From contig NZ_ACJN02000002.1 in assembly GCF_000174435.1 (NCBI RefSeq), positions 779,490-811,489 on the forward strand: a stretch of DNA of 32,000 nt, read 5' to 3'. Under the pieces are notes generated by a model that ran no database searches, had not been told where the DNA came from, and was given only the letters and a program-made list of their open reading frames with translations. Position numbers and translations under genes: made by a program. Source of the DNA: Desulfonatronospira thiodismutans ASO3-1. GTDB taxonomy: Bacteria > Desulfobacterota > Desulfovibrionia > Desulfovibrionales > Desulfonatronovibrionaceae. Below are positions 3,317 to 20,786 of this stretch, in pieces (within the stretch, counting starts at the first letter, position 1; the number at the start of each line of letters is the position of its first letter).

Positions 3317-3753
3317 GCTGCTCTCTCCTTTCAAAAGTTTTAGCAAAACTAGTTTGGCGTGCTTCAAAAATCAAATCTTTATCCTTAGCTTGCCTACCTG
3401 TTAGTTTTGGACTTAACACCGCGAGGGTTATTTGAACTCAATTTTTTAAGTTACTGTTCAGCCATGGGAGTTTAATTTGACAGCCCTGGAATCCTGCGGC
3501 AATAAGCATGGGGCTGTGAGACATGTGAGACAGTTGGACCTGGATTTTGTTTTCTTTAGTCTGATTTGTGTACTGGTATTAAACTTAACATGACAATCTA
3601 TCTCAACGTCTTTATTTATTGTATATAATATGGTATAATAGACTTTTTTACCAGACTTAGATTTTTCCTGCCCAACATTTTTTCTTTCCAAGATGCGACT
3701 GCAAAAAGTCTGTCTCGTAACACTTTCTCTGTGAACTGATTTTCAATATATTA

Positions 3754-3782
3754 TTGACAAATAACAAGGTTTTTGCTATGCA
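3754..3782 (+). promoter_or_regulatory. putative sigma70-type promoter for the IS transposase
   Basis: TTGACA (3754-3759), a 17-nt spacer, then TATGCA (3777-3782), lying ~30 nt upstream of the GGGAG RBS and ATG 3810. Confidence 0.35.
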
Positions 3783-3809
3783 GTCTCCTAACAACAGGGA
3801 GACATAAAC

Positions 3810-5513
3810 ATGTTACACGCAAAGAATAGAATGCAACCTTATCTGCCAATAAACGTTACTTATTTCAATGATAGAAAGTATGATTATTTACAGAAGACAA
3901 TATATCATACCTTCAGGACTGTCTTTTTGCCTTTTTTGCCTGTTAAAATTTACGGTAAGCACTTCGATAAAACAATGGGCAGAAAAACTAAAGACGTACA
4001 GTCAATGCTAGGACTCTTTATCTTGCAGGCGCTGTTTGACCTTAAAGATAGCGATGCCGTTGAAGCATATACTTTTGACCAAAAGTTTCATTATGCCTTA
4101 GATATTAAAGAGCAGGAAGCCTATTTATCAGCAAGAGCTTTTTACTACTACAAGACAATCCTGCTGGGCACGGAAGACCACATCTTCGAGCAGATCCTGG
4201 CCAAAATTTTTGACGAACTCCAATTTGACTACTCCCTGCAAAGAACCGATTCATCTCTTGTTCGCCTCAACCTCAAAAAAATGTCCCAATGGGAACTCTT
4301 CAAAAAAACTCTGATTAAAGCCCTGAACGACATCAAAGCCAAGCACCCCGTCATCTTCAAGAGTGTGCCTGAGCACATCCAGCAATACATCCAAAATGAC
4401 GAAAACAACACTTGGTTTTCAGACTTCACCCCCAGCAAGGCCAATGACTACCTCGTCCAAGCCGCCAGAGACGCCCTGGAACTAAAAGAGCTTTTCGAAA
4501 GCCATCCCAAAATCTCAAAACTGGAATCCTTTCAGCTGGTACAGCGCCTCATCAATGAACAGGTGGACGTGGATGATCAGGGCCAAATCAAAGTCGAGAT
4601 AAAAGAGGAATGCAAGGGATCCGCCATGGCCAATCCCCATGATCCCGATGCTCAGTACAATGGCCACAAAAAAGATATCGGAGTCAAGCTCAATACATCA
4701 GAAACCTGTGCACCTGACAAGGATACGCCTAATCCGCAAATTATCACCCATGCAGAGGTTACCCCCGCCAATATCTCGGACCATGAACTCCTGCAGCCAT
4801 CAATAGATGCCAGAGAGGAGAAGGGCTTTAAGCCTGATGTGGAACTGACTGACAATGGCTATGAATCCGATGCAAACCATCAGGCCCTGCAGGAAAAAGG
4901 CGTTGACCTCATCGCACCTCCCACCGGAAAGCCGCCTGAAGGCTTTGGAGTCATGGACTTTGAACTTCAGGAAAATGGACAATCCATTGATGCCTGCCCC
5001 ATGGGACAGACCTGTATTGAAAACAAAATTAATCAAAAAAAGCAAAAGACGGCTTCATACTTTGACCCCGAACAATGTCGAGCATGCCCGCATTCCGAGG
5101 ACTGTCCAATAAAAATCACCAAGCGCAAGGCAAAGGTGGAATGGCAATGGAGCAAACCTCGCTTGGAAGCCAGAAGACATGCCTTTCAAGAAGATCAGGA
5201 ACTAATCAATCTTTTCAAACAACGGGCCGGAGGTGAAGCCGGCTTTTCCCAGCTCAAGGTTAATCTTGGCCTGAGAAGATTGAGATGTCGTGGATCCGTG
5301 AAATCAAAGTTTAAAATTATCATGGCGGTCACGGCCTTAAACATCAAAAGAGCTTTCAACTGGATGAAGGGCGGCAGTAGTGGGTCCAGAGCCCGAAACA
5401 ATAAAGATTTTGAACCGGATACAGGCATACTTTTGTTTTTTTTCTGGCTTTTCTGTTCATATCTTCGCAAAATTTTGATCGTCTCGGGCCTGCGTCCGAA
5501 AATTTTTAGCTGA
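3810..5513 (+). CDS. DDE transposase, IS1182-like
   Basis: A 567-aa ORF. It contains LTDNGYESDANHQALQEKGVDLIAPP (DDE region), a Cys cluster CRACPHSEDCP, and a C-terminal GGEAGFSQLKVNLGLRRLRCRGSVKSKFKIIMAVTALNIKR. From memory, all three are typical of IS1182/IS5-type transposases. Confidence 0.75.
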   Translation: MLHAKNRMQPYLPINVTYFNDRKYDYLQKTIYHTFRTVFLPFLPVKIYGKHFDKTMGRKTKDVQSMLGLFILQALFDLKDSDAVEAYTFDQKFHYALDIKEQEAYLSARAFYYYKTILLGTEDHIFEQILAKIFDELQFDYSLQRTDSSLVRLNLKKMSQWELFKKTLIKALNDIKAKHPVIFKSVPEHIQQYIQNDENNTWFSDFTPSKANDYLVQAARDALELKELFESHPKISKLESFQLVQRLINEQVDVDDQGQIKVEIKEECKGSAMANPHDPDAQYNGHKKDIGVKLNTSETCAPDKDTPNPQIITHAEVTPANISDHELLQPSIDAREEKGFKPDVELTDNGYESDANHQALQEKGVDLIAPPTGKPPEGFGVMDFELQENGQSIDACPMGQTCIENKINQKKQKTASYFDPEQCRACPHSEDCPIKITKRKAKVEWQWSKPRLEARRHAFQEDQELINLFKQRAGGEAGFSQLKVNLGLRRLRCRGSVKSKFKIIMAVTALNIKRAFNWMKGGSSGSRARNNKDFEPDTGILLFFFWLFCSYLRKILIVSGLRPKIFS

Positions 5514-5593: not shown

Positions 5594-6485
5594 TGTTCAC
5601 ACTCATTTAAAGCAGCTACCCCTTTTTGCATCTCAAGATGGGCAGGTAGAACCTGTAGCTGAAAGACAGAATTATCTTCTATTTGACCGCATGATCGCTT
5701 TTCATGTCCAGCGCGGGGTGAGCGTGCCCATGTCTGCTGCTGAGTTTTACCAGGGACTGGCCCAGCGCTTTGATGAGCGGGATGGCATGTATTTTCTGCC
5801 TGAGCAGGCTGCTGAATACGACCGGAAACGCAGGACAGTAAAAATATTCCGAGAGCTGACGCTCATGGTCATTGACGAGGCTTCGGCCATTCAATGGCTC
5901 AAGCAGCAACTGTCCAGAAAGCCCCAGACCTTTCAGGAGTTGCATCCTCAGTTTATGAAAGAAATCGGGGGCTGGCAAAAACATGAGAAGATGCTGGAGC
6001 TCTCTGATCTGCTGGAGCAGAATTTTCTGATATATAGTGAGGGCAGCCCCATACCTGCCCAGATTGTTTCCTGGATGAAGCAAAGCGAGGAGATGCGAAG
6101 CATCATTGCTGAAGAGACTGAAGTTGGCCGCTTGCGTGAAGACCAGGGCGCTTTGCATATAGAGCAAACCACCCCGCAAATCTCCAAATTGATCAGCCGG
6201 GCCAAGTCCCGCTGGTATGTACCCAATCCCAACAGGGCTGCGGACCTGGAAAAACTCCGGGAGAAGTCCCTGCTCAAGGAGTTCGAGGAATACAAACAAT
6301 TCAAGGGCCGGAAGATGAAGCAATTCAGACTGGAGGCGGTCCGGGCCGGATTCAAAAAGGCCTGGCAGGACCGGGACTACGAGACCATCATCAATATCGC
6401 CGAAAAGATCCCGGAGAAGGTTCTCCAGGAAGACCCAAAACTGCTAATGTGGTATGATCAGGCGGTGACCAGGGTGGGGAATTAG
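5594..6485 (+). pseudogene. 3' remnant of a large defence-island DNA methyltransferase gene (PglXI/PglX-like C-terminal region), 5'-truncated at the IS end
   Basis: The reading frame is open from the first base after the IS right end (..VHTHLKQLPLFASQDGQVEPVAERQNYLLFDRMIAFHVQRG..) through to the stop at 6485. The C-terminal motif LLKEFEEYKQFKGRKMKQFRLEAVRAGFKKAWQDRDYETIINIAEKIPEKVLQEDPKLLMWYDQA is one I recall from C-termini of BREX/defence methylases. No methyltransferase catalytic motifs are present, so only the tail survives. Confidence 0.55.
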
Positions 6486-6487
6486 TA

Positions 6488-7126
6488 ATGAAGCTGGATG
6501 AGCCTATTCCTATTTATCGGCTCATGCATGTAGACAATCTGCCGGTTTGTTTGAATCGAGGTGGACTACACGCACCTCATTACGTTCCTGAAAACGGGCT
6601 CAGCTACACGGCAATTCACAATATTGACATCCAGCAGATCAGACGTGTCAGATATATAAAATGCGGTCCAGGAGGTACGGTGCATGATTATGTGGGTTTT
6701 TATTTTGGCCCACGCCCACCCATGCTCCTGCAATTGCATACCGGACAGGTACCTGGATATGATCAAGGACAGGAGCCATTGATTTATATCGTGTCTACAG
6801 TACAATCTGTAATTGAGGCGGGCCTTGATTATGTCTTTTCAGACGGCCATGGGATAGCCGCCTATACACAATGGTTTAGTAATATTGAAGATTTAGACAA
6901 GGTGGATTGGAATACGGTATAAGCAAATTATTGGGCTGATACCAATGAAGATATGGACAGGCAACGTCGCAAGCAAGCTGAATTTTTGGTTTACCAGTCT
7001 TGTCCATGGGATATTGTTAGCTCTATTGGCGTGTTGAGTGATAGTGTGAAGATCAAGGTAGAGAAAATCTTGAACCAATATTCCATGATAACGCCGGTAC
7101 AAATACAAAGGCAGTGGTACTACTGA
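6488..7126 (+). pseudogene. darT: darT (DUF4433 ssDNA ADP-ribosyltransferase toxin) interrupted by an in-frame TAA at 6920-6922
   Basis: N-terminal part: PIYRLMHVDNLPVCLNRGGL...DYVGFYFGPRPPMLLQL...YVFSDGHGIAAYTQWFSNIEDLDKVDWNTV, then a stop. The same frame continues ANYWADTNEDMDRQRRKQAEFLVYQSCPWDIVSSIGV...QRQWYY to TGA 7124-7126. The downstream part carries the conserved KQAEFLV motif. Confidence 0.8.
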
Positions 7127-7137
7127 GAGGATAAAAA

Positions 7138-8172
7138 ATGATAGAGCATGTCCAAGGAAATATTTTGAACGCCCAGACAGAAGCTCTGGTCAATACAGTG
7201 AACTGTGTAGGCGTTATGGGCAAAGGAATTGCTTTGCAATTCAAGAAAGCCTTTCCTGAAAACTTCAAGACATATAGAAATGCTTGCCAGCGAGGAGAAG
7301 TCAAGCCTGGTCGTATGTTTGTTTTTGATACCGGGCAAGAGCTTCCAAGATACATAATCAACTTTCCCACTAAGCGTCATTGGCGAGACAAAAGCAGATA
7401 TGAAGATATAGAAGCTGGTTTGCAAGCCTTGGTCAAAGAAATAACGGCTCGAAATATAAGCTCTATTGCCGTTCCTCCTTTAGGATCGGGCCTGGGTGGG
7501 CTGGATTGGGCAAAGATAAAGCCGATGATCGAAAGAGCATTCAGTGACCTCCCCAATGTACAGATTCAGTTGTTTAAGCCTGAAGGATCGCCCCAGGCTT
7601 CAGAAATGCCAGTAGGCTCTGACAGGCCGCATCTGACAACGGCCAGGGCCTTGTTTATCAAACTGATGCAGCAATATAAGCGTTTTGCATACAGGCTTAC
7701 CCTTTTGGAGATACAGAAGTTGGCCTATCTTCTTCAAGAGTCTGGGCTGAACCTGAGGCTTTCCTATGTCAGGCATTACTATGGACCATACGCACATAAT
7801 TTGAACAAGGTCCTGGAGATATTGGAAGGCCATTATATTTCAGGATATGGAGACACCCAAAAGCCTGATGTGGAGATCAAACTGTTGCCTGATGCAATTG
7901 ATGCTGCTGATGTACTCCTGAGCAAACATCTAGAAGCTTATAAACATCTCAACAGGGTTGCCGACCTTGTTGATGGCTTTGAAACACCTTATGGTATGGA
8001 GATGTTATCGTCGGTACATTGGCTGGCAGTTCACGAACGGCTGGCCGTTGATCAACAAAGCGCTATATCAGCCATGGCTGGATGGAATGAACGAAAAAAG
8101 TGTTTGTTCAAGCCAGAGCACATTTGTATTGCCTGGGACCGGCTTCAAGAAGAGGGCTGGATAACCTATTGA
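7138..8172 (+). CDS. darG: DarG antitoxin (N-terminal macrodomain plus C-terminal DarT-associated domain)
   Basis: A 344-aa ORF with macrodomain signature GNILNAQTEALVNTVNCVGVMGKGIALQFKKAFPENF and ...SIAVPPLGSGLGGLDW. It lies immediately downstream of darT and has a GAGAGG RBS. Confidence 0.85.
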   Translation: MIEHVQGNILNAQTEALVNTVNCVGVMGKGIALQFKKAFPENFKTYRNACQRGEVKPGRMFVFDTGQELPRYIINFPTKRHWRDKSRYEDIEAGLQALVKEITARNISSIAVPPLGSGLGGLDWAKIKPMIERAFSDLPNVQIQLFKPEGSPQASEMPVGSDRPHLTTARALFIKLMQQYKRFAYRLTLLEIQKLAYLLQESGLNLRLSYVRHYYGPYAHNLNKVLEILEGHYISGYGDTQKPDVEIKLLPDAIDAADVLLSKHLEAYKHLNRVADLVDGFETPYGMEMLSSVHWLAVHERLAVDQQSAISAMAGWNERKKCLFKPEHICIAWDRLQEEGWITY

Positions 8173-8229
8173 AATCAATTGACTTAGAAGAGGAAATTTA
8201 TCTCTCATCAGATAAATGGTTGAGTCCTG

Positions 8230-9601
8230 ATGCATGACTGGCAGTACAGCATTCAGCATAATCAACCCTGCCGGGTATTGGAAAAGCACTCTCTCTGGGG
8301 CCAAGACATATGCCGGGTCTGGCTGCCTGAGCAGGATGCTGTGGTCCGGGTTCCTGCCGGTGCGCTCACTCCTCTTGAAAAAGGCGCTCGCTACTCCACC
8401 AGCGCCATTATCTATATCTCCACAGCCGCCAGAATTGCTGACGCCCTGACTCAGGATGTCTTGCTTGCGCCCATAGAATCTCAGGTAATCCCTCTGCCGC
8501 ATCAGATCCACGCCCTGGCCCGGGCGACTTCCGGGGACAAAGTACGCTACCTTCTGGCTGATGAAGTCGGTCTGGGTAAGACCATTGAAGCCGGTCTGAT
8601 CATGCGGGAGCTAAAACTCAGGGGCCAGGTCCGGCGTGTGCTGATTGTGGCACCCAAAGGTCTGGTCTCCCAATGGGTGGCTGAGATGCAGTTTCATTTC
8701 AGTGAACATTTTCAGCTTATGCTGCCAGGAGATGTGCAGGGACTTGGCCGCATGGCCCCTGCAATATCCAGAGATTATACAAATGCAGATTCCCTGGACA
8801 ATCCGGCCAACCCATGGCGGCTGCTTTCTCAGGTGGTGATTCCCCTGGATTCCTTCAAGCCTCTGGACAACAGGCAAGGCATGTCCAGATCTTGCAGCTT
8901 ATGGCGGCAGGGCGGAAAACAAAGGCAGCTTCTGGAATCTGATCTGGCCTGGAGACGACAATGTTCTTGCTGCTGCCTTTACTGCCAGGGATGCTGAGAT
9001 AACTCCACAAGCCAGCCTGTTGACCCTGGAGGATTCCAGGATACGAGCTTTGGCCATGCGGCTTCCTTGTTGGGCGCCTGGCCAGCCACTGCCCGTGACC
9101 ACAATTCCTGGTGCTGCTGCTTCTCTTCAAGGGGTGTGGTCTTTGTGGCGTATTGCTATTATCACCCAGGACTGGAAAAAGGTGCGGATCATGCCCCTTT
9201 TCATCGATGATCAGGGCAAGAATTTCAGTTTAAGCGCCAGGAACATCTGGGATCTGTTGCTCAGTGCAGAGCCTGTTATACATGATTATCTGGGCAGCCA
9301 GAGTTCTTACAAAAGGTATGGGTATTCTTCCAGGGTTGCGGAAAAGCAGGGTCAGCCTCAGTATCAAGAGCTTTTACAGGAGCATGCAAGCCAATTGAGC
9401 CGGGAGCAGGAAAAAATGCGTTATTATTTCGCAGCCAGAAGAAAAATAATCGAGAGCATTGGACTGCCTGAAGTGCGTGCATATCGCTTCAGGAAGCTGG
9501 AACAAGAAGAACAGGCCAGCCAGGCCGAGTTGCAGAGAAAGGCTGAGGTTATTCCTGAGATTGAGCCCTTGCTTATGCTGCGTATACAGGGGGAAAAATG
9601 A
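8230..9601 (+). pseudogene. SNF2-family helicase gene (BrxHII-like) with a large internal deletion and frameshift
   Basis: ORF 8230-8997 carries SNF2 motifs I/Ia (LLADEVGLGKTIEAG; LIVAPKGLVSQWVAEM) and then degenerates after ~8885. A different frame is open from ~8840 and reads ..DLAAYGGRAENKGSFWNLIWPGDDNVLAAAFTARDAEITPQASLLTLEDSRIRAL.. into ORF 9020-9601. No DEAH box and no helicase-C motifs appear anywhere. The last codons overlap the pglZ start (ATGA). Confidence 0.7.
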
Positions 9602-11601
9602 CTGGATGGCGGGAGCATATCCTTGCTGATTTCAGCCCGGGAACAGTCGGATTAACCCTGGTTGCGGACCCTGATGGCCTGCTGCTGGAAGCAGGTATGC
9701 TGGAGAGGATTCAAGAGAGAGGATTTGCTCTGATTCCCTTTGAAAGCCATGTCGAGTTTCGCTTTGCCTTTGAATCCAGTTTCAGATCAAAGTGGGATGA
9801 GAACCTGGAGAAAGAACAGGCTGTGGTGGTGCATGTAACTCAGGATGATCTCCAGACTCTGCCTTATGACCTTTTACAGGCCGGACGCAGGCTGCATTTT
9901 TCTCTGGCAGGGATTTTCCCCAATTTCAGCTATCCGGTGCTGGCAGCTTTGGATAAGTCTGATTTGGATGCCTTGTATCTGGCCCAGAAGGATCTGGCCT
10001 CTGAAAGGCTTGGGGACAGAAGCAGTAAAGATTTTATTCTGCGTCATGTCTACTCCATTGCCCCGGAACTACTGAAGCATACTGCTGATCTTCTGCGCAT
10101 GCTGTTACGGATGCATTACAGGCAAATTCACCTGCCATCCCTGTTCCAGGAGCACCTGATCCAGGAGATTGAAAAAAACGGACGTTTTTCTGATTGGCCC
10201 CTGGGAACAATAGTCCCTGATAGAGAGGCATTTTTGGCCTTTTTGCAGGAGCGCTGGGAGTATTTTATCCAGCAAAAATCATCGCAACAGATTGCGTCTC
10301 TTCAGGAAAACAGGGGAGTCTTCAATCCAGTCTATCCCGGCCCTGTTGATCTGCCGTTTGAACATCACGACGTCCGTGTCTATCTGGACACACTTTTTTT
10401 GGATGGACTGCTGGAGCCTGTAGATCATCCCCAGAGTCAGGCCTTGAGCGAAACCTGGGTCAGTCTGGGGGTGCGCATTGATCCAGAGGCGGATCGCATA
10501 AAAAGACTGGAAAAGCTGTATTCCTCCCTGCGGGATGACCTACCCGGTCAGCAGGCCCGGCACGGGAAGTGGCTGACTTTTGCCAGAAGCTGGGCTGAGC
10601 TTCTGGCCTTGTGGCTGCAAACCGATAAGGAGCCGGTCCCCGGTATTGAAGACAAGATCCGGGCTGTTCAATTGGAGCTGGATAATACTCTTGCTGTCTG
10701 GGCGGAAAATAAGCTTGGCGGGCTGATCAACCTGCCCCCCGTACCCCCGGTTATGCTGCATCATATCCCGCGCTTCCTGGCCCGCAGTCTGGAGCAGACC
10801 CAGGGTGGCAAAGTAGCTCTGGTAGTCCTGGACGGACTTTCTTTTGATCAATGGGTGACCATGCGCAAGGTGCTTGCTTTGAACACAGATTTTCTTTTTC
10901 GAGAAAATGCGGTTTTTGCCTGGCTGCCCACAACCACCTCCATTTCCAGGCAGGCCCTGTTTGCGGGACGTCCTCCTGTGTTTTTTCCGGACAGCATTCA
11001 TACCACTGGTAAAGAAGCGTATCTCTGGCGTCAGTTCTGGGCTGATCATGGTATCAAAGAACAGGAAACAGTCTACGCCAGGGGGCTGGGTGATGATATC
11101 ACTGATGAACTGCACCATCAGCTCGTCAGCCCGCAGACCAGGGTGGCCGGTCTGGTGGTGGATAAGGTGGACAGGATAATGCATGGAATGGAGCTTGGAT
11201 TGTCAGGTATGCATAATCAGATCAGGCAGTGGGCCGGGCAGCCTTTTCTGGGTTATCTGCTGGATGTGCTTTTGCAGGCCGGATACCAGGTGTTTTTGAC
11301 CTCTGATCACGGAAATATCCAGGCTGCAGGATGCGGACGTCCAGCAGAAGGAGCCCTGGCCGCTAGCAGGGGGGAAAGGGTCCGCATATTTCGTGATCCA
11401 GCATTGCGGGAAAGAGTTGCATCCAGCTTCCCCGAGGCCATCGCATGGTCCGGCTCCGGTCTGCCAGAGGATGTTTTTCCTTTGATAGCCCCCCACAGGC
11501 AGGCTTTCGTTTCAAACACCAGGCAGCTGGTTTGTCATGGAGGAATTAGCCTTGAAGAACTGGTTGTGCCTTTGGTGCAGATTGAGAGGAAGCAGACGTG
11601 A
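9598..11601 (+). CDS. pglZ: PglZ-domain alkaline-phosphatase-superfamily protein (BREX PglZ)
   Basis: A 667-aa ORF with PglZ-type motifs VALVVLDGLSFDQW, TTTSISRQALFAG and FLTSDHGN. Its start overlaps the helicase stop. Confidence 0.85.
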   Translation: MTGWREHILADFSPGTVGLTLVADPDGLLLEAGMLERIQERGFALIPFESHVEFRFAFESSFRSKWDENLEKEQAVVVHVTQDDLQTLPYDLLQAGRRLHFSLAGIFPNFSYPVLAALDKSDLDALYLAQKDLASERLGDRSSKDFILRHVYSIAPELLKHTADLLRMLLRMHYRQIHLPSLFQEHLIQEIEKNGRFSDWPLGTIVPDREAFLAFLQERWEYFIQQKSSQQIASLQENRGVFNPVYPGPVDLPFEHHDVRVYLDTLFLDGLLEPVDHPQSQALSETWVSLGVRIDPEADRIKRLEKLYSSLRDDLPGQQARHGKWLTFARSWAELLALWLQTDKEPVPGIEDKIRAVQLELDNTLAVWAENKLGGLINLPPVPPVMLHHIPRFLARSLEQTQGGKVALVVLDGLSFDQWVTMRKVLALNTDFLFRENAVFAWLPTTTSISRQALFAGRPPVFFPDSIHTTGKEAYLWRQFWADHGIKEQETVYARGLGDDITDELHHQLVSPQTRVAGLVVDKVDRIMHGMELGLSGMHNQIRQWAGQPFLGYLLDVLLQAGYQVFLTSDHGNIQAAGCGRPAEGALAASRGERVRIFRDPALRERVASSFPEAIAWSGSGLPEDVFPLIAPHRQAFVSNTRQLVCHGGISLEELVVPLVQIERKQT

Positions 11602-12338
11602 CAGCAGATAAATTTCAAATAGGCTGGAGCCAGCGCATCCGTCTGGAGTGGCTGGAACGTACAGCAAATTTGGTTTTGGCGGGCAATGACAAAGACACTG
11701 TTTTTGCCTCTCTGCAGCAGGATTTACAAGATCAGCTCTCCATCGGCGGAACTGCTAAACGGGGCAACAGGGAAAAAGTTATTACCATCTTAATGAAGCT
11801 GTGGTCCGTTCCTCCCAGGCATTTGCAGGATTTTCGCAACCGAGGGCTTAATCTGCTGCAGGTTCTTCCGGTAAAGCAACATCTTCTGGTTCATTGGGGC
11901 ATGGCCACGGCTGTATATCCATTCTGGGCCGGTGTAGCAGAGCAGACAGGCAGACTTTTGCGTCTGCAGGGTCATGTTGCCGCTGCCCAGGTTCAACGAC
12001 GCATCAGGGAACGCTATGGTGAGCGGGAGACCGTTTCCAGAGCAGCCAGGCGGGTGTTGCGTTCTTTTATGGACTGGGGGGTGCTTGAGGATTCTGGCAA
12101 GAAAGGAGTATATGTACAAGGGCGGAATTTGCCTGTGGATACTTCCGAATCCATGGGCTGGCTGATAGAGGCCTTGCTGCGGGCAGGCTCCAGGGACTCG
12201 GCATCTCTGCACAGCCTTATGCATAGTCCCAGCCTGTTTCCTTTTTCATTTTCCGGGAGCGTTTCCTTGAATACATATTCCGGTCTTGAGTTTATGCGCT
12301 TTGGTATGGATGAGGATATGGTAATGCTGAGCAAGTGA
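11598..12338 (+). CDS. hypothetical protein translationally coupled to pglZ (occupies the position of brxA in type-3 BREX; family not recognised)
   Basis: A 246-aa ORF with a GTG start overlapping the pglZ stop (GTGA) and a GAGAGGA RBS 7 nt upstream. It has no motifs I can assign. Confidence 0.6.
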   Translation: MTADKFQIGWSQRIRLEWLERTANLVLAGNDKDTVFASLQQDLQDQLSIGGTAKRGNREKVITILMKLWSVPPRHLQDFRNRGLNLLQVLPVKQHLLVHWGMATAVYPFWAGVAEQTGRLLRLQGHVAAAQVQRRIRERYGERETVSRAARRVLRSFMDWGVLEDSGKKGVYVQGRNLPVDTSESMGWLIEALLRAGSRDSASLHSLMHSPSLFPFSFSGSVSLNTYSGLEFMRFGMDEDMVMLSK

Positions 12339-12365: not shown

Positions 12366-12470
12366 TTGTTCGGGTTGTTGTTCGGGTCGGACCCAGCCAA
12401 TATATTGAAAATATTCGATAAGAACTCGTTCTTTGCTTGATTTTGAGTCCTAGAACAGCCATTTTGATAT
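12366..12470 (+). repeat. interspersed ~155-bp repeat family, copy A (left ~105 bp only)
   Basis: GTTGTTCGGGTCGGACCCAGCCAATATATTGAAAATATT...CTCGTTCTTTGCTTGATTTTGAGTCCTAGAACAGCCATTTTGAT aligns with copies B-D. It begins ~30 bp after the stop of the pglZ-coupled gene, and the short unit GTTGTTCGGG is duplicated. Confidence 0.85.
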
Positions 12471-12836
12471 ATTTTCTTTCATTTGGGTGCTTTCTTGTAG
12501 GAGTACTTTTGAGGGGATGAGTTCTGGCCATGGTGGTGGTCAGGGGCTTGGTTGTGCACTTGGTGCCTTTCGGGCCTTGCGAGTACTGGACGATCCAGGG
12601 TCTGCCGGTACGGGGATAGGTTCCTGCTTGGATTGTGTCAGTTCATGGGCATGATTGACTTTTTAGTGGGGACAAGGCATGGAATAAAGAAAGCATCTTT
12701 ATCAGAGTTTTTGGTTGGAGGTGTTCCTTGAGTGGACGGCAGGCCTGGCTCACCTCGTCTCATGGCAGGGGGCTCTGGTTGAGATTTAAATATAATGTAT
12801 ATTATATTTTTTGAGTGATAGAGGGAAATTTTGTAA

Positions 12837-13073
12837 TTGAAGACAACGAAATACTTTAAGGCGACCCGAATCAGGCCGGATCGAAAAATCATCAAGGACG
12901 AATGGATTCAGTATGTTGTCCAACATCCTGAGAGAGAACAAATACAGACGGATGGCCGAATAAAGCGATGGGCCAGAATAGAGGAAATGGAAGGCCGATA
13001 CCTTCGGGTAATTTTACTCGCGGATGGTGAAACTATCCACAATGTATTTTTTGATAGAGGATTCAAACCGTGA
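12837..13073 (+). CDS. small toxin-like protein (DUF4258-type partner of DUF2283, from memory)
   Basis: A 78-aa ORF with a TTG start and a GAGGGAAA RBS. The C-terminal GRYLRVILLADGETIHNVFFDRGF pattern and the 4-nt overlap (GTGA) with the downstream DUF2283-like gene indicate a two-gene module. Confidence 0.55.
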   Translation: MKTTKYFKATRIRPDRKIIKDEWIQYVVQHPEREQIQTDGRIKRWARIEEMEGRYLRVILLADGETIHNVFFDRGFKP

Positions 13074-13267
13074 AAGTTAGCTATTTTGATGATACTGATA
13101 CACTATACATCGAGTTCCGTGATAGTGATATAGCGGAGACCAAAGATCTGGATGAAAATACCATTCTTGATGTTGATGCGGAGGGCAACGTCTGCGCAAT
13201 CACATTCGAACATGCAAGCGAACGTACTGACGTGAGTCACCTCATCGTGGAGGGCATTGCGGCATAA
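13070..13267 (+). CDS. DUF2283-family small protein (putative antitoxin partner)
   Basis: A 65-aa ORF reading MKVSYFDDTDTLYIEFRDSDIAETKDLDENTILDVDAEGNVCAITFEHAS. This matches the remembered DUF2283 pattern (YD.e.D.LYI ... lD.d..G.i.gIei). Confidence 0.65.
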   Translation: MKVSYFDDTDTLYIEFRDSDIAETKDLDENTILDVDAEGNVCAITFEHASERTDVSHLIVEGIAA

Positions 13268-13281
13268 TCAGCCCATCAAAG

Positions 13282-13434
13282 GTTTGTTCGGGTCGGACCC
13301 AGCCAGTATATTGAAAATATTTTAGAAGAGCTCGTTTTTTGATTGATTTTGAGTCTTAGAACCGCCATTTTGATGTGGAAAAAGTAGTTCTAAACTTCTA
13401 TTCTCCGAGGCGACAACTATCCTGCCACATGGGG
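13282..13434 (+). repeat. interspersed ~155-bp repeat family, copy B (full length)
   Basis: The conserved blocks are TTCGGGTCGGACCC.GCCA.TATATTGAAAATATT, GCTCGTTTTTTG.TTGATTTTGAGTCTTAGAACCGCCATTTTGAT and GTAGTTCTAAACTTCTATTCTCCGAGGCGACA.CTATCCTG.CACATGGGG. Confidence 0.9.
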
Positions 13435-13749
13435 TTTGTGGTCATCTTTCGCATCCCAGAGGAGAAGTGGCTGACCCCGCAAGATACCCCGCAAGCCACC
13501 CCGCAAGATGCCCCGCAAGTCGAACAGCTTCTCGAAATCTGTATCCAGCCATTATCCCGGCAAGAGATGCAAGATAGGTTAGGACTCAAGGACCGTGAAC
13601 ACTTTCGGAAATACTATTTAAAGCCAGCACTTGATGCGGGGTTGATTGAGCAAACAATCCCCCAAACGCCTAAGAGCAAGTTTCAAAAATACAGATTGGC
13701 CCAGGCCGGACGCAACTATCTTCAAAACATGAAAAAGGGCAAAAAATGA
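13435..13749 (+). pseudogene. C-terminal winged-helix fragment of a larger regulator/ATPase gene (RecG-like/AlbA_2- or Fic-associated type), 5'-truncated at repeat copy B
   Basis: The sequence TPQDTPQATPQDAPQVEQLLEICIQPLSRQEMQDRLGLKDREHFRKYYLKPALDAGLIEQTIPQTPKSKFQKYRLAQAG matches the remembered C-terminal tail of that family, including a 4 x 12-bp CCCCGCAAG codon repeat at 13474-13521. The first ~20 codons of track ORF 13375-13749 are encoded by the repeat itself. Confidence 0.55.
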
Positions 13750-13829
13750 TGTCTGCCCCGACGATGATATTGGCACAGAGGGCTGCAAAAAACTGGGTAT
13801 GAATAGTTCAGCAATAACCCAGATTCACA

Positions 13830-13989
13830 GTTTGTTCATTTGCTCGGGTCGGACCCTGCCAATATATTGAAAGTATTTGATAAAAGCTTGTTTTCACTTG
13901 TTTTTGAGTCTTAAAACCGACATTTTGATGTGGAAAAAGTAGTTCTAAACTTCTATTCTCCGAGGCGACATCTATCCTGACACATGGGG
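13830..13989 (+). repeat. interspersed ~155-bp repeat family, copy C (full length)
   Basis: Aligns with B and D along its whole length and ends ...GAGGCGACATCTATCCTGACACATGGGG at 13989, 40 bp upstream of the next start codon. Confidence 0.9.
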
Positions 13990-14029
13990 TTACAACGGCT
14001 TTGTAAAAATAGAAAAATAAGGAGAGAGC

Positions 14030-14926
14030 ATGAAGATTGGTAGCTTGGAGATTGATTCGAGGTATCTGATTATAGCTGGGGTGATCTTGCTTCTGGTTGT
14101 GATTTTCGGGGTGAGACAGCATGCAAACAGACAGGCGCAGGAAGTGGCCGACGGGATTATTTCTGAAGTTTCAGATTATGTGAAGGTAGAGTATAATTCT
14201 GTAAGAGGGGAGATTTTGGGCAGTGCTATTGTTCTTAACGGGGTGACTGTCGCGCCAAAAAGCGATCCGGAACAGAAGTCTGAAATTGACAGGGTGCAAA
14301 TCCAGGCCAGGGATTTCAGTGATAATGGTGTACCATATACTATGAATGCATCGATTGAGGGTCTTGCTATATACATAGACGACATGAAACCGGATGATGC
14401 CAGAACCATGCGTGATCTTGGCTATGAAGAAGTTATGCGGGGCAATCTCCAGTTCGGATACAAATACGATTTGGATGAAAGCCATCTGTCCCTGCATGAT
14501 ATAGGTATTGGTATAGATGATATGGGGAGTATATCTTTTGATCTTGATCTTGGTAATATCACTCCTGACAAACGAGATCTGATGAACCTGCTTTTTACTC
14601 ACCAGGAGATATTGGTGGGTGATTTTCGGCTGCATTATAACGATGACTCTTTTATACCCAGGATAATTCAATATGTTGCAGATGATACTGGCATGAGCGA
14701 GGATGAAGTACTTGAAATGGTTATAGCAAAAGTTGAGCAGGACATCCGGGTTGCAGATACAAATTTTGCCAGAGAGTCCCTGAAAAACTTGAAAAGCTTT
14801 CTTGAGAACCAGGATTCCCTATCCATCACGGCCAGGCCAGAAGAGCCGCGTCCTTTGGGAAGGCTTATGCAAATTCAGAACACAGACGATATTATAGAAT
14901 ATATGAACATAAGTATTGAAAATTAA
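14030..14926 (+). CDS. hypothetical membrane-anchored protein, family not recognised
   Basis: A 298-aa ORF with a strong RBS (AAGGAGAGAGC-ATG). It has a single N-terminal hydrophobic helix (YLIIAGVILLLVVIFGV) and an acidic soluble domain, and its codon usage is AT-rich relative to the flanks. Confidence 0.7.
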   Translation: MKIGSLEIDSRYLIIAGVILLLVVIFGVRQHANRQAQEVADGIISEVSDYVKVEYNSVRGEILGSAIVLNGVTVAPKSDPEQKSEIDRVQIQARDFSDNGVPYTMNASIEGLAIYIDDMKPDDARTMRDLGYEEVMRGNLQFGYKYDLDESHLSLHDIGIGIDDMGSISFDLDLGNITPDKRDLMNLLFTHQEILVGDFRLHYNDDSFIPRIIQYVADDTGMSEDEVLEMVIAKVEQDIRVADTNFARESLKNLKSFLENQDSLSITARPEEPRPLGRLMQIQNTDDIIEYMNISIEN

Positions 14927-15015
14927 ATCAGTCTTGTTCGGATAGCTGAAAGAAGCTGAGATCGCCCCGACCAAAGGGAAGGCAAAATCCGACTCACAGT
15001 GAGGTTGCTGGTAAC

Positions 15016-15170
15016 GGTTCTTTATTCGGGTCGGACCCGGCCAATATGTCGAAAATATTTGAGAAAAGCTCGTTTTTTGCTTGATTTTAAGTCTTAGAAC
15101 CGCCATTTTGATATTGAAAATGTAGTTCCAAAGTTCTATTCTCCGAGGCGACATCTATCCTGACACATGG
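15016..15170 (+). repeat. interspersed ~155-bp repeat family, copy D (full length)
   Basis: Aligns with B and C and ends ...GAGGCGACATCTATCCTGACACATGG at 15170. Confidence 0.9.
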
Positions 15171-15185
15171 AAAATAAGGTAACAG

Positions 15186-15244: not shown

Positions 15245-15738
15245 AGCCGTGAGCGGCAGAGCCGCCCGCCTGTCCCGTGAAACAAACGTAGTTTCAGCGT
15301 AGCTGGTTTCACTGGGATGTGCAACGAAGTTGCCCGTGCCAAAAAAATCTTCTCTGGCACGGGAAGCCTTCAGGCTTCACACCCGACTAAAATACGCTTT
15401 GCTGTCCTGCGGAATTTTAGCGGGCAGGCAGGTGCTCCGCATACACGGTTTTGAAGAATAAAGATCCCCAGAAGCATGCCCCGCCCATATCTTTAAACAC
15501 AGTCTTGAGGTATTCATTAGAGTTTCTTCAGGCCTTGTGTGCGCAGGTAGCAAATAGTTTAAAGGATATGTGCGGGGGCATTGCCCACATGGCAGACAGG
15601 CAAATTGGCATATCTCCCCCCTGAAGAGTTACAAAATAAGGAAACTCTCACATTTTAAGCCCAGTTTTTTTAGGTATCCATCAAGAGAAAGACTATTATG
15701 CAATCAAAACCTTGCCCTGATAATTTATCGAGGTTCAT

Positions 15739-15951: not shown

Positions 15952-16010
15952 ACATTCATCTTTTGCCGCCGGCTGATATTGAGCTTGATGGTGCTATTTT
16001 AATATATGTT
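15948..16010 (+). pseudogene. N-terminal fragment of a ParE/RelE-type toxin gene, truncated
   Basis: MNIHLLPPADIELDGAILIY resembles the start of plasmid-stabilisation (ParE-like) toxins. Homology stops near 16010, where an IS-end-like motif begins; the ORF then runs into unrelated sequence to a stop at 16043. Confidence 0.45.
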
Positions 16011-16026
16011 TTTTTGCAGGTGCGTT
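16011..16026 (+). repeat. short motif resembling the right terminal IR of the IS1182-like element, at the truncation point of the second methylase remnant
   Basis: TTTTTGCAGGTGCGTT resembles IRR TTTTTGCAGACGCATC (5576-5591) and TTTTTGCAGGTGCATC (20961-20976). The match is short and imperfect. Confidence 0.4.
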
Positions 16027-16724
16027 ATGTATTTTCTGCCTGAGCAGGCTGCTGAATACGACCGGAAACGCAGGACAGTAAAAAAATTCCGAGAGCTGAC
16101 GCTCATGGTCATTGACGAGGCTTCGGCCATTCAATGGCTCAAGCAGCAGCTTTCCAGAAAGCCCCAGACCTTTCAGGAGTTGCATCCCCAATTCATGAAG
16201 GAAATCGGAGGCTGGCAAAAGCATGAGAAGACGCTGGAACTGTCTGATCTGCTGGAGCAGAATTTTCTGATATATAATGAGTTAGCCCCATACCGGCCCA
16301 GATTGTCTCCTGGATGAAGCAAAGCGAGGAGATGCGAAGCATCATTGCTGAAGAAACTGAAGCCGGCCGCTTGCGGGAAGACCAGGGTGCCTTGCATATA
16401 GAGCAAACCAGCACGCAAATTTCCAAATTCAACAGCCGGGCCAGATTCCGGTGGTATGTACCAAATCCCCATAGGGCTGCGGACCTGGAAAAACTCCGGG
16501 AAAAATCGCTGCTCAAGGAGTTCGAAGAATACAAGCAATTCAAGGGCCGGAAGATGAAGCAGTTTAGACTTGAGGCAGTCCGGGCCGGATTCAAAAAGGC
16601 CTGGCAGGACCGGGATTACCAGACCATCATCAATATCGCCGAAAAGATCCCGGAAAAGGTCCTCCAGGAAGACCCAAAACTGCTCATGCGGTATGATCAG
16701 GCGGTGACCAGGGTGGGGGGATAA
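16027..16724 (+). pseudogene. second paralogous copy of the methyltransferase 3' remnant, more truncated and frameshifted
   Basis: 16027-16717 aligns colinearly with 5787-6478 at high identity by eye. A 1-bp deletion near 16285 (AATGAGTTAGCCCC versus AGTGAGGGCAGCCCC) splits it into track ORFs 16006-16317 and 16314-16724. Confidence 0.8.
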
Positions 16725-16800
16725 AAATTTTTTCCTGATACATACAGAAGCGTTAACATTTCGTGATTTCAAGGTAAGAAAAAAAAAAAAGGAGGAGACT

Positions 16801-17322
16801 ATGAGGCTTGGAAGCTATGTGGCTTCAGCTGTCAGCGAGCTGAATAAGAACGATATTTTTGCAGGGAAAACCAATATTCAGAAGGTGGTTTATTTTGCAC
16901 TTCCAGCTGAGCTAAGAAAAGAATTCTACAGACCTTATCATTATGGCCCTTACTGTGCTGAAGTGCAGCAGGCTGTGAGTGCCCTGCTTAAAAGAGAAAT
17001 ATTAAGTAAGTCCGGCAAAGGATTTTCCCTAGCTGATAATCGAACTCTTAACCAGGAAACAGATCCGGTGATTGATCGAATTAAAGTTACAATTGACTTT
17101 TTTTATAAAAATAGCCTTACAGGGGCAGACGATATTGCCACATTGGCCAAAGCACATCTTTTATCCCGCTCAGAGCGGGAAGATGCCAAACAGAACCCTG
17201 TTGCTTATATCCAATCTCAGGCCAAGTTTTTGGGCTGGAAGGAATTGTCTGGCGAAGATCCTGAAAAGATACAAGCTTATTTACACCTGGCGAACAATTT
17301 GGACAAGGCTTTGGAAGTGTAA
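16801..17322 (+). CDS. hypothetical protein related to the C-terminal domain of DarG (SocA/Panacea-like antitoxin-type domain, tentative)
   Basis: A 173-aa ORF with a strong AGGAGG RBS. Its motif TNIQKVVYFALPAELRKEFYRPYHYGPYCAEVQQAVSALL parallels the DarG C-domain in this same window (LEIQKLAYLLQESGLNLRLSYVRHYYGPYAHNLNKVLEIL). Confidence 0.6.
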   Translation: MRLGSYVASAVSELNKNDIFAGKTNIQKVVYFALPAELRKEFYRPYHYGPYCAEVQQAVSALLKREILSKSGKGFSLADNRTLNQETDPVIDRIKVTIDFFYKNSLTGADDIATLAKAHLLSRSEREDAKQNPVAYIQSQAKFLGWKELSGEDPEKIQAYLHLANNLDKALEV

Positions 17323-17334
17323 GGCGAGAGAAGC

Positions 17335-17673
17335 ATGAGCTCTAAACGTATCCGAGATCCGTTATACGGCTTTATCGAGGTAGATGATCAGGATATTAAG
17401 CTTATTGATCATAGATTGACCCAGCGCCTGCGCTGGGTGAACCAGTTACCTTTGCCAGTTTTTGAACGTAGAGTACAACAGGATCTTTTGGTGCAGCAAG
17501 ACTCCGGAAAGGAAGCTCCTGTAGCAGAATATCTTGGATTCAAGATTTCAGACGAAGATGTTCTGGAAAAAGGGGACACATATCTGCACATATTCATCCG
17601 GCCATATTCTTCTATCAGGCACGATGAGTTAAGATTAAAAATAGATAATGTGCTTCATCGATTCGAGGCTTAG
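17335..17673 (+). CDS. small hypothetical protein; the N-terminus resembles the start of HD-domain phosphohydrolases, so this may be a deletion remnant
   Basis: A 112-aa ORF. KRIRDPLYGFIEVDDQDIKLIDHRLTQRLRWVNQL resembles the conserved N-terminus of SAMHD1-like HD proteins (..I.DP.HG.I.L...E..LID.P.FQRLR.I.QL), but the H..HD metal motifs that should follow are absent. Confidence 0.45.
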   Translation: MSSKRIRDPLYGFIEVDDQDIKLIDHRLTQRLRWVNQLPLPVFERRVQQDLLVQQDSGKEAPVAEYLGFKISDEDVLEKGDTYLHIFIRPYSSIRHDELRLKIDNVLHRFEA

Positions 17674-17737
17674 CGTGTTTTCTTTAATGACCAGAGTTGA
17701 TTATGGAAATCGTATCAATGTATGTATGGAGTAGTTC

Positions 17738-18760
17738 GTGACCTTAACGTATTTGAAATTTCACAGATTTACAGCCTTTGACCGGCTGGAGCTGGATCTA
17801 TCTCCAGGTATCAATGTCTTTATTGGAACCAATGGGACGGGCAAGACGCATTTGATGAAAGCCGCTTATGCAGCCTGTGATATTACCAAAAGCAAGCTTG
17901 GGCTGGCAGATAAGCTGGTCCGGGTTTTTTTGCCCTCAAACAGACATATCGGCCGCATGGTCAAACGGCAGAAAGGTAGCTCCAGGGCGAAGCTGGACAT
18001 CCGTCGCGGCAATAAAAAACTGACACTGTCCTTTTCCAACCATGCCAAGTTGTCCAGATCGGCAACAAGCACTGGAGAGAAGGATTGGGTCAAGGATCCT
18101 GTGGAAAGCGTATATATCCCGGTCAAGGAGATGCTGGCCAATGCAGTAGGTTTCAGATCCTTGTATGCTCAAAGAGAAATTCATTTTGAAGAGATCTATG
18201 CTGATATTCTGGACAGGGCTTATCGTCCTCCTCTGCGCGGTCCGGCTGAAAAAAGCCGCAAGTCCTTGATGAACAGCCTGCAAAAGATCATTGATGGGCT
18301 GGTCATTGTCAAAGAAGAAGAGTTTTTTCTGCGCAACAAGGAGGGCAACCTGGAATTCTCTCTTCTGGCCGAAGGCATGCGCAAACTGGGTTTGCTTTGG
18401 CTGCTTATTCAAAACGGCACCCTGCTCAAAGGTTCTGTCCTTTTTTGGGACGAACCGGAAAGCAATCTCAATCCCAAGCTTTTCGGGACCATGATGGAGA
18501 TCCTGCTCGCTCTGCAGAGGCAGGGAGTCCAGGTATTCCTGGCCACTCATGATTATGTGATCCTTAAAGAACTGGACCTGCGCCGCCGGAAAAGGGACAA
18601 GGTGGTATTCCATTCTCTGTACCGGGATGAAGAAACCAATGAAATCGCGCTGCAGGTTGCTTTGAATTACCAGCAGGTGCATCCCAACGCCATTGCCGAC
18701 GCTTTTTCTGATATCTATGACCGGGAGGTGGAAAGAAGCCTGGGAGCGGTTGAGGTATGA
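17738..18760 (+). CDS. ABC/SMC-like AAA ATPase (AAA_15/AAA_21-type defence-associated ATP-binding protein)
   Basis: A 340-aa ORF with a GTG start and a GGAG RBS. It has Walker A GTNGTGKTHL, a signature-like LLAEGMRKLGLLWLL, Walker B/D-loop VLFWDEPESNLNP and H-loop LATHD. Confidence 0.8.
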   Translation: MTLTYLKFHRFTAFDRLELDLSPGINVFIGTNGTGKTHLMKAAYAACDITKSKLGLADKLVRVFLPSNRHIGRMVKRQKGSSRAKLDIRRGNKKLTLSFSNHAKLSRSATSTGEKDWVKDPVESVYIPVKEMLANAVGFRSLYAQREIHFEEIYADILDRAYRPPLRGPAEKSRKSLMNSLQKIIDGLVIVKEEEFFLRNKEGNLEFSLLAEGMRKLGLLWLLIQNGTLLKGSVLFWDEPESNLNPKLFGTMMEILLALQRQGVQVFLATHDYVILKELDLRRRKRDKVVFHSLYRDEETNEIALQVALNYQQVHPNAIADAFSDIYDREVERSLGAVEV

Positions 18761-18900
18761 CGCAAATCAAGGAAGGCAGTATTGCTATAGATTTTTCCCA
18801 GGCCCTGAAGGTCCGCAGATTTGACGACATCAATCGCGGCCTTTCATTTTGTATGAAGGCGGTGGATTTTATTGTTGAGCTGGAAAAGAGCGTGATGTAA
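18757..18900 (+). pseudogene. 5' fragment of the ATPase partner gene, truncated by a MITE arm that supplies the stop codon
   Basis: Its ATG overlaps the ATPase stop (ATGA). It reads MTQIKEGSIAIDFSQALKVRRFDDINRGLSFCMKAVDFIVELEKSVM and then TAA, which lies inside GTAAGCATTCAGGGG (the repeat terminus at 18897). KAVDFIVE is compatible with the beginning of a PD-(D/E)xK-type core, which is speculative. Confidence 0.5.
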
Positions 18901-18977
18901 GCATTCAGGGGATACCGAAATCACGCCTCTGGCGTGACTGGGGACAGTCCCCGCGACATCTATCCTGACACATGGGG
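18897..18977 (+). repeat. composite repeat: one arm of the GTAACCATTCAGGGG-type MITE fused to the last ~24 bp of the ~155-bp repeat family
   Basis: GTAAGCATTCAGGGGATACCGAAATCACGCC...GGGGACAGTCCCCGCGACA is similar to the reverse complement of 26972-27020. It is followed by TCTATCCTGACACATGGGG, which is identical to the right end of copies C and D. Confidence 0.75.
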
Positions 18978-19313
18978 ATACTCATCTCAGACTTCATCCT
19001 CAACGAGTTCGAGACCAAACTGGTATCTAATCACGGTCGAAGAGGCTGCAGCCGCTACCGCGCTTGTCCACACCCGCGCGGTTCTGCATTCACCGGAGCC
19101 TCTGTCTGATCGGCATCCAGAAAGGACAGCCAAGTAGCCTGATCCTTCCCGACGCGTCGTCACGCCAGGCAAGATATGCCTGCGTACCGCCGCCATGACG
19201 GCGGAGCGTTCCCCACGCCTGTGTGTCACCGTCGGTTTCAAGATCCATGTCGGCATTGACAAACCTCTCATTGATATGTACAGGAAATATGTACACCATA
19301 AACGGAGGCGAAT

Positions 19314-19592
19314 ATGGCAATCCAAACAACATACACACATGCACGCGCAAAGCTGTCTTCATTATTGGATGCGGTGACCCAAGATCGTGAAGTAGTCATC
19401 ATTCAGCGACGTGGGCAAGAGGACGTGGCCCTGATCAGCGCCGATGAACTGGCTGGTATTTTTGAAACCGCGCATCTGCTCCGTTCCCCCAAAAATGCAG
19501 AGCGGCTTTATGCTGCTTTGGACAGGGTGAAAAAACCATCAGGATCACCTCAAACCATAGAGGAACTTCAAAGCGAGGTTGGTTTTGAGTAA
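19314..19592 (+). CDS. yefM: Phd/YefM-family antitoxin
   Basis: A 92-aa ORF with a GGAGG RBS. The N-terminus TTYTHARAKLSSLLDAVTQDREVVIIQRRGQEDVALISADEL is typical of YefM, and the ORF is followed by yoeB. Confidence 0.85.
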   Translation: MAIQTTYTHARAKLSSLLDAVTQDREVVIIQRRGQEDVALISADELAGIFETAHLLRSPKNAERLYAALDRVKKPSGSPQTIEELQSEVGFE

Positions 19593-19605: not shown

Positions 19606-19881
19606 ATGCCTCAAACAAAAATAAAGCGCGAATCCGTGTTTCAACCCGAATTCAGGGAAGACCTGAAATTCTGGGTTGAAACAGATCGCAAAACCGCACT
19701 TCGTATATTTCAGTTGATAGAGGCTGTTATGCGCGACCCATTTCAAGGCATGGGGAAACCTAAACCTTTAAAGTATCTTGGCCCGGGTGCATGGTCTCGT
19801 CGAATTACACAGGAACATCGGTTAGTTTATGTTGTCGGCCATGAAAGAGTGGATTTTGTTCAAGCTCGTTATCACTATTAA
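19606..19881 (+). CDS. yoeB: YoeB/Txe-family mRNA interferase toxin
   Basis: A 91-aa ORF. FWVETDRKTALRIFQLIEAVMRDPFQGMGKPKPLKYLGPGAWSRRITQEHRLVYVV...ARYHY closely parallels E. coli YoeB (..PFEGKGKPEPLK...WSRRITEEHRLVY...CRYHY). Confidence 0.9.
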   Translation: MPQTKIKRESVFQPEFREDLKFWVETDRKTALRIFQLIEAVMRDPFQGMGKPKPLKYLGPGAWSRRITQEHRLVYVVGHERVDFVQARYHY

Positions 19882-20495: not shown

Positions 20496-20786
20496 ATGGA
20501 AAAGAAAGAGGAAATCCTATTTTTTCTGCAAGAGCACAGAAAAGAACTCAAGGAAAGATTTTCCGTGAGACGAATCGGTCTTTTTGGGTCTGTACTTAAT
20601 GATGCTGCAGAGACTGGCAGCGATGTGGATATTCTGGTAGAGCTGGATCAGCCCACATTTGACAACTATATGGACCTTAAATTTTTCCTGGAAGACGCAT
20701 TCGGCCGATCGGTGGATCTTGTTCTGGCAGACAACCTTAAGCCCCGCCTCCAGCCGATCATTTCCCAAGAGGTGACCTATGTATAG
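20496..20786 (+). CDS. nucleotidyltransferase-domain protein (MNT-type antitoxin of HEPN/MNT modules), with no HEPN partner present
   Basis: A 96-aa ORF. RIGLFGSVLNDAAETGSDVDILVE is the minimal nucleotidyltransferase GS...D.D motif. Its stop codon lies at the edge of the IS-IR-related element that begins at 20784. Confidence 0.8.
   Translation: MEKKEEILFFLQEHRKELKERFSVRRIGLFGSVLNDAAETGSDVDILVELDQPTFDNYMDLKFFLEDAFGRSVDLVLADNLKPRLQPIISQEVTYV

Follow-up and report, generated by a model that had tools for sequence, protein, structure and literature searches.

Among described defence systems, four lie closest to the subject of this analysis, a group of four adjacent genes in Desulfonatronospira thiodismutans ASO3-1 (assembly GCF_000174435.1, contig NZ_ACJN02000002.1). 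The toxin DarT and its antitoxin DarG are represented by the Mycobacterium tuberculosis DarT–DarG complex (PDB entry 7YK3), while in PanAT the Panacea (DUF4065) antitoxin domain is found with many types of toxin (Kurata et al. 2022, PMC8832971). Depletion of deoxynucleoside triphosphates (dNTPs) by the SAMHD1-type anti-phage dGTPases is a single-gene defence (Tal et al., bioRxiv 10.1101/2021.04.26.441389). HEC-02 (Hma-embedded candidate 02), an ABC ATPase with a NERD-type PD-(D/E)xK nuclease found embedded in Hma, protected Escherichia coli when a Dickeya homologue was tested, with both genes needed (Payne et al., bioRxiv 10.1101/2024.01.29.577857). The four genes, designated A to D here and numbered one to four in an earlier, sequence-only reading, occupy part of a 32,000-nt window (positions 779,490 to 811,489 of the contig, forward strand), to which all coordinates refer. 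They probably constitute two independent defence modules, with C and D forming HEC-02 and A and B the remnant of a conserved pair that joins a DarG-C-terminal-like protein to an HD phosphohydrolase.

All four open reading frames (ORFs) lie on the + strand and are tightly spaced, as the sequence-only reading had described. Genes A (16801-17322, 173 aa) and C (17738-18760, 340 aa, GTG start) are intact, B (17335-17673) encodes 112 aa and D (18757-18900) 47 aa; 12 nt separate A from B and 64 nt B from C, with a 4-nt ATGA overlap between C and D. Both modules have been inactivated, the HD gene by the loss of 1,045 nt that held all its catalytic residues and the nuclease gene by a cut after codon 46, and because neither retains a working effector this is not a functional cassette.

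The position of the genes also agrees with the earlier proposal that they fill the slot taken by darTG in a paralogous bacteriophage exclusion (BREX) locus. Their left flank is the C-terminal remnant of the BREX methyltransferase PglXI, a pseudogene in two frames (16006-16724, + strand; PADLOC MTase_II and PglXI matches of 1e-41 to 1e-49), and the two pglX 3' ends, at 16027-16718 and 5787-6479, are 92.6% identical, with divergence beginning directly after the pglX stop codon. Three metagenome contigs (L016-L018; such labels denote loci retrieved from genome and metagenome collections), 99.7% identical to window positions 17444-18893 over the common 1,450 nt, continue through an intact gene D into the start of brxH, which is 93.6% identical to window positions 8214-8370. 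The shared pglX ends and this brxH junction together place darTG (6488-8172, + strand; PADLOC DarT 2.9e-40, DarG 6.1e-135) and A-B-C-D at the same pglX–brxH position; a second, decayed type-3-like BREX locus hosts both two-gene modules in tandem between pglX and brxH.

The second module belongs to a described system. Gene C matches the PADLOC HEC-02A profile (PDLC04213) at 1.5e-130 over positions 1-336 of 337 and Pfam AAA_21 at 4e-21, and its translation shows Walker A (GTNGTGKT), Walker B (LFWDEPE) and H-loop (LATHD) motifs, confirming the ABC-type ATPase that had been recognised from the letters. Gene D matches the start (about 50 positions) of several 170-185-residue PADLOC HEC-02B profiles, the best at 1.4e-10 over positions 1-51 of 171. 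Gene C is an intact HEC-02A ABC-type ATPase, and gene D is the 5' remnant of a HEC-02B NERD-like PD-(D/E)xK nuclease. The likeness to HEC-02 extends from the full profile length of C and the N-terminus of D to the gene order, the 4-nt overlap seen in intact copies and nesting within a larger defence system; the differences are that the host system here is BREX rather than Hma and that HEC-02B is cut before its catalytic ExK motif. The sequence-only reading had suspected the ATPase and its partner to be an unnamed system, naming homology to a well-described system as evidence to the contrary, and such homology was found, PADLOC assigning the pair to the published HEC-02, a system included in PADLOC-DB v2. 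HEC-02 being already known, the window adds another broken, BREX-embedded example.

Where the same reading described D as the truncated, translationally coupled partner of C, resembling a nuclease, the intact relatives agree. HEC-02B is 170 aa long in L016-L018, reading ...ELEKSVLFVEVKD..., and at 169-170 aa in L016-L018 and L015 reads ...AVDFIVELEKSVLFVEVKD..., the motif being present there. Gene D retains 46 genuine codons; its identity to the intact gene stops at nt 18893, followed by a stop codon two codons later. The break falls just before an E-V-K motif, so that the ExK motif and about 120 residues are gone, and a copy cut at this point should be non-functional. No remaining 3' part of D was found anywhere in the window. 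The break had been ascribed to an arm of a miniature inverted-repeat transposable element (MITE), and a real repeat fragment does lie beyond it: 29 nt (18953-18981, + strand) that reproduce the 3' end of a ~150-nt repeat (family D2) and are 97% identical to the reference copy. The part of the claim that did not stand is the insertion itself, as the fragment is only 29 nt long and begins 59 nt away, across unrelated sequence, with only the terminal ~30 nt common in alignment. With no more than 29 nt of the repeat there and nothing left of the 3' part of D, a simple MITE insertion into D was rejected; the same two observations imply a deletion or replacement event. Four copies of the ~150-nt repeat, 63-89% identical to the reference copy, lie within 12377-15176 (at 12377, 13283, 13838 and 15021), no terminal inverted repeats were seen in it, and a 12-nt tandem repeat is present at 13474-13519. 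The ~150-nt repeat may be a MITE, the boundary of a cassette or a regulatory element.

Gene A, for which there is no curated model, is a stand-alone relative of the toxin-binding (DarT-binding) domain of DarG on the margin of the Panacea-like antitoxin superfamily, an assignment that follows from a fold match, a profile match and a pairwise profile alignment. Its AlphaFold (AF2) model (predicted local distance difference test score, pLDDT, 93.6) had one significant Foldseek match in the PDB, 7yk3_B/D (E 8e-4, probability 1.0, template modelling (TM) score 0.61/0.57), the matched chain being the DarG C-terminal domain. A 136-sequence gene-A profile matched 7yk3_B at E 2.4e-9, and hhalign aligned gene A with residues 173-317 of the DarG encoded in the window at 95.6% probability. 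The signature common to A and the DarG C-terminal domain, noticed earlier together with the lack of a macrodomain, is therefore upheld by sequence profile and by fold. Weak PADLOC and NCBIfam matches of gene A also fall on the C-terminal half of DarG, and the more distant A-like proteins of L015 and L038 match the NCBIfam DarG model at positions 172-333 (1e-13) and 177-317 (2e-5). Pfam returned no match to gene A at E≤0.1, SocA_Panacea and Macro included; SocA_Panacea (PF13274) is matched at E≤0.01 by 3 of the 136 family members, and weakly by the partner protein of L015. Weak Foldseek matches link the N-terminal half of gene A to winged helix-turn-helix (wHTH) regulators.

The close family of gene A is small, with 16 matches among 5.8 billion clusters, some of them labelled 'YwgA' by the Joint Genome Institute (JGI); a profile search of 1.84 billion representatives gave 235 clusters, the best 150 of which are all ≤280 aa. 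Between the window and L020, gene A has a nonsynonymous divergence (dN) of 0.19 with synonymous divergence (dS) saturated, and the gene is under purifying selection. No match to gene A was found by tblastn in plasmids and phage genomes. The sole match from a viral collection is an orphan A-like ORF of ~208 aa on a 51.7 kb contig (IMG/VR IMGVR_UViG_3300014911_000009, retrieved as both L041 and L088). The 7.6 kb to its left and to its right hold no HD gene, and this ORF may be a phage-borne antitoxin mimic.

Gene A thus resembles DarTG in having the fold and profile similarity of the DarT-binding DarG C-terminal domain, in occupying the slot held by darTG in the paralogous locus, and in being an antitoxin-like gene that has an enzyme gene next to it in the same orientation. 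It differs in being a stand-alone protein of ~170-190 aa without a macrodomain, and in that its partner is an HD phosphohydrolase and not an ADP-ribosyltransferase. No DarT match lies next to A in the window, where the neighbour is an HD remnant, and elsewhere DarT was found only beside macrodomain-fused relatives. With PanAT it shares the pairing of one antitoxin-type domain with unrelated toxins and the occurrence of both gene orders; it differs in lacking any Pfam hit, which puts gene A outside the reach of the DUF4065 gathering-threshold survey (PMC8832971), a paper in which no HD or phosphohydrolase toxin is mentioned.

Gene B had been taken for a small effector whose first residues resemble an HD phosphohydrolase; the resemblance is genuine, and it is explained by an internally deleted gene, so that the small effector gives way to the deletion remnant of a ~460-aa SAMHD1/EF1143-type HD phosphohydrolase. 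The HD gene that stands beside A in relatives encodes ~430-495 aa, and in BLASTP comparison with the intact 450-aa partner of L002 only the two ends of gene B align, codons 1-40 forming the N-terminus and codons 41-112 the last ~72 residues of a ~460-aa HD protein in an in-frame fusion. The event can be read directly from L019, which over 1,918 nt shares 99.5% identity with the window and in which the HD gene has its full length, with one frameshift beside an ambiguous base. Compared with L019, the window is missing 1,045 nt (L019 1914-2956), with the junction at 17453/17454, 2-nt microhomology and the loss of codons corresponding to ~41-388. Contigs L016-L018 have the same deletion and a further loss of ~66 nt, leaving a 90-aa product. 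The metal and catalytic residues of the H...HD...D set, invariant in 30 HD partners (H50, H55, H114, D115 and D198-D208), all lie inside the deleted segment. Gene B itself has no match in Pfam, NCBIfam or PADLOC, and a homologue search with the fusion returned only the 90-aa sibling variant; its identity came from the neighbours of A homologues only.

Intact HD partners match 2hek (5e-30), SAMHD1 (~1e-19) and EF1143 (2o6i), their nearest relatives of solved structure, in the PDB, and HD and HD_assoc_2 in Pfam. Like the anti-phage dGTPases they are SAMHD1/EF1143-type proteins with the full catalytic set, which makes dNTP depletion a plausible effector activity; they differ from that single-gene defence in always occurring with an A-like protein and in their low scores against its models, while in the window the enzyme core is deleted altogether. 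Matches to the dGTPase models are partial (3e-5, with PADLOC dGTPase, and 5e-5), and NCBIfam antiphage_dGTPase gives 22.6-28.6 bits against a cut-off of 400 bits.

The pairing of A with an HD enzyme was followed through loci retrieved by A-family motif scans of the genome and metagenome collections and then searched with local hidden Markov models. These contain 67 non-redundant A-like ORFs, comprising four macrodomain-fused proteins (true DarG) and 63 stand-alone ones. DarT lies just upstream of three of the four fused relatives, the fourth being truncated by a contig end. An HD gene adjoins 47 of the 63 stand-alone ORFs and is co-oriented in 46 of those 47; five lack one although each of their flanks extends for 1.4 kb or more, and the remaining 11 are on contigs too short to judge, so that HD is directly adjacent in 47 of the 52 informative loci. 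The stop and start codons of the pair usually overlap; A precedes HD in the close clade and follows it in more distant clades. No Pfam, NCBIfam or PADLOC model covers the A-HD pair, a literature search found no paper on it, and the supplements of Payne et al. contain no mention of HD, dGTPase or DarG. The pairing is conserved and appears to be undescribed. As to the suggestion that the cassette is uncharacterised, the HEC-02 half is known, and what stands is the A-HD family, with its strong conserved co-occurrence and neither model nor paper found for it.

Several pairs lie among other defence genes. The order is HmaA-HD-A-HmaB-HmaC in L038, HD-A-HmaB in L042 and BrxC-HD-A-PglXI-helicase-DUF2290-HEC-02A-HEC-02B in L015, while HmaC/DUF499 adjoins the pair in L081 and L008 and a type IIG restriction–modification (RM) enzyme in L007. 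Among 100 immediate neighbours from 34 loci, the recurrent PADLOC matches are to HmaC/DUF499, HmaB, PglX, MADS and RM methyltransferases and dGTPase. The L015 locus (GCA_964595165.1, CAZQPF010000053.1) is one BREX locus with three embedded modules, the HD and DarG-C-terminal-like genes between brxC and pglX, and a UvrD-type helicase with DUF2290, then HEC-02, after pglX. In L066 a strong match to the known anti-phage dGTPase (8425-9849, minus strand; PADLOC 2.4e-125) lies convergent to and directly downstream of the HD-A pair, and under the same arrangement L065 has such a match at 3533-4660 beside its pair, which places two dNTPase-type genes side by side.

Decay of the pair has been one-sided. 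The HD gene is deleted, split or absent with A at full length in the window lineage, in L005/L023, in L001/L021 and in L020, at least four independent lineages, and it is also split beside a full-length A in the distant loci L057, L065 and L070. An HD enzyme that is costly or toxic, and that A neutralises, would be expected to be lost in this way with A retained. In an intact module, A would bind the HD enzyme and keep it inactive, much as DarT is held by the DarG C-terminal domain; infection would remove or override A, and the released enzyme would deplete dNTPs or attack (cut) nucleic acid, blocking phage replication. The intact pair is tentatively proposed to be an undescribed, widely scattered toxin–antitoxin (TA)-like anti-phage system that has repeatedly come to lie within Hma and BREX. 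Until infection, the SAMHD1-like dNTPase would be restrained by its DarG-C-terminal/Panacea-like partner, and the enzyme would be so costly that it is repeatedly deleted with the neutraliser kept. The indications that it may behave as a type II TA pair are indirect, namely the conserved adjacency, the recurrent loss of HD with A kept and the homology of A to a toxin-binding domain.

Several observations weigh against this proposal. Many pairs lie outside recognisable defence loci, with those of L001, L002, L004 and L005 in polysaccharide clusters and that of L009 in a Methanocella chromosome near radA, and the HD partners, scoring far below the anti-phage dGTPase model cut-offs, are not members of that family. 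The tally of loci with A intact and HD decayed is biased by ascertainment, because the loci were seeded on A motifs, and it is from homology that we infer that A would bind HD, that HD would be toxic and that it would act as a dNTPase. The JGI label 'YwgA' recalls ywgA-ywfO, a core gene pair of Bacillus subtilis. In an alternative that we consider unlikely, though deserving of weight, the pair does housekeeping work and is neither an immune nor a TA module: a dNTP triphosphohydrolase, together with a small subunit of regulatory or winged-helix type, would control dNTP pools, its placement in BREX and Hma being incidental. It would account for the pairs in polysaccharide-biosynthesis clusters or ordinary chromosomal contexts, an archaeal chromosome among them, for the 'YwgA' names, for the weak wHTH-regulator matches of the N-terminal half of A, and for the absence of the family from plasmids and phage genomes, with one viral contig the only exception. 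It fits poorly with at least six loci in which the pair is co-oriented with Hma, BREX or RM genes that enclose or adjoin it, with a patchy and rare family (the 235 clusters among 1.84 billion representatives), and with frequent deletion of HD, unusual for a housekeeping enzyme; moreover, the domain to which A is homologous has toxin neutralisation as its one known role.

Other alternatives concern the window copy itself. Tight spacing, co-orientation, the lack of any internal promoter-like or + strand terminator-like site and the presence of the same four genes together in sibling contigs L016-L018 could suggest one new four-gene system with A and B regulating C and D, a reading that is nevertheless very improbable: outside the window lineage, L015 is the only one of 60+ other A-like loci with HEC-02 genes, and they occupy a different BREX slot there; A, with its 235 clusters, contrasts with the very large family of HEC-02A-type ATPases (>5,000 homologues at E≤1e-30); and HEC-02 defends as a two-gene system. 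HEC-02 being so rarely found with A, the two modules are independent, as the sequence-only reading had thought possible. Hardly any credence is given to a cassette that still acts as defence in the source genome, for although A and C are intact ORFs, B is without every catalytic residue, D is without its ExK motif and about 120 residues, HEC-02 needs both genes, and the surrounding BREX genes are also pseudogenes. Selection for the 112-aa product of B as a mini-protein, retaining those ends of the HD enzyme that bind A or are regulatory so that A and B keep a function, for example as a decoy or orphan antitoxin complex, is quite improbable. Three deletions are in frame (that of the window, the extra 66 nt of L016-L018 and that of L005), and the independent deletions of the window and L005 (6540-7142) alike spare the N-terminus and the final ~72-76 residues, with right breakpoints no more than ~7 codons apart. 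Three in-frame events would occur by chance about 1 time in 27, which is weak evidence; against a mini-protein stand also the frameshifted gene of L001/L021, the entire loss of the gene in L020 and the lack of fusion homologues outside the window lineage. A dN/dS comparison of L004 with L005 does not distinguish the HD remnant from the intact gene, because most of the divergence is older than the deletion. The matching ends retained in the window and L005 could be due to chance or to selection for those ends.

Joining a macrodomain-free DarG toxin-binding domain to a SAMHD1-like HD enzyme, the A-HD pairing is missed by the current models of Pfam, NCBIfam and PADLOC. Were it an immune module, dNTP depletion, which human SAMHD1 also uses, would exist in a form held in check by a protein inhibitor, and the DarG C-terminal domain would join Panacea as a portable antitoxin domain that works with different toxins. 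The window further illustrates how embedded defence genes decay: both effectors (HD and HEC-02B) are broken, with A, the putative neutraliser, and C, the ATPase, intact. Its dead local copy leads to a well-defined, testable candidate family.

The first BREX copy, at 5691-12338, is itself degraded and runs in the order PglXI C-terminus, DarT (split), DarG, BrxH (with a large internal gap), PglZ and BrxA. Its PglX is reduced to the last 264 residues and is preceded by an IS21 pair (529-2844) and a DDE transposase (3810-5513). Residues 1-144 of DarT are encoded at 6488-6922 and the C-terminal part (...RKQAEFLV...) in another frame at 6953-7126, beside an intact darG at 7138-8172, another toxin decaying with its antitoxin kept. 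BrxH (8230-9601) is divided between two ORFs that match profile positions 5-212 and 740-931 of 933, a gap that implies an internal loss of ~530 residues. Closer to the cassette, a segment at 15253-15633 ends sharply at 15633 beside the pglX remnant, and its counterpart is inverted directly after the brxH start in L016 (4512-4893) and L017 (4062-4202), which points to the end of a mobile element whose location varies between near-identical genomes. An Rfam scan of the window found no RNA family, and a scan of 16500-19400 found no promoter-like sites, with terminator-like sites on the minus strand only and no more frequent than in shuffled sequence. Downstream of the cassette are a YefM/YoeB TA pair (19314-19592 and 19606-19881), a lone MNT-type nucleotidyltransferase without an obvious HEPN partner (20496-20786) and, from 21002, genes of an oligopeptide-type ABC transporter.

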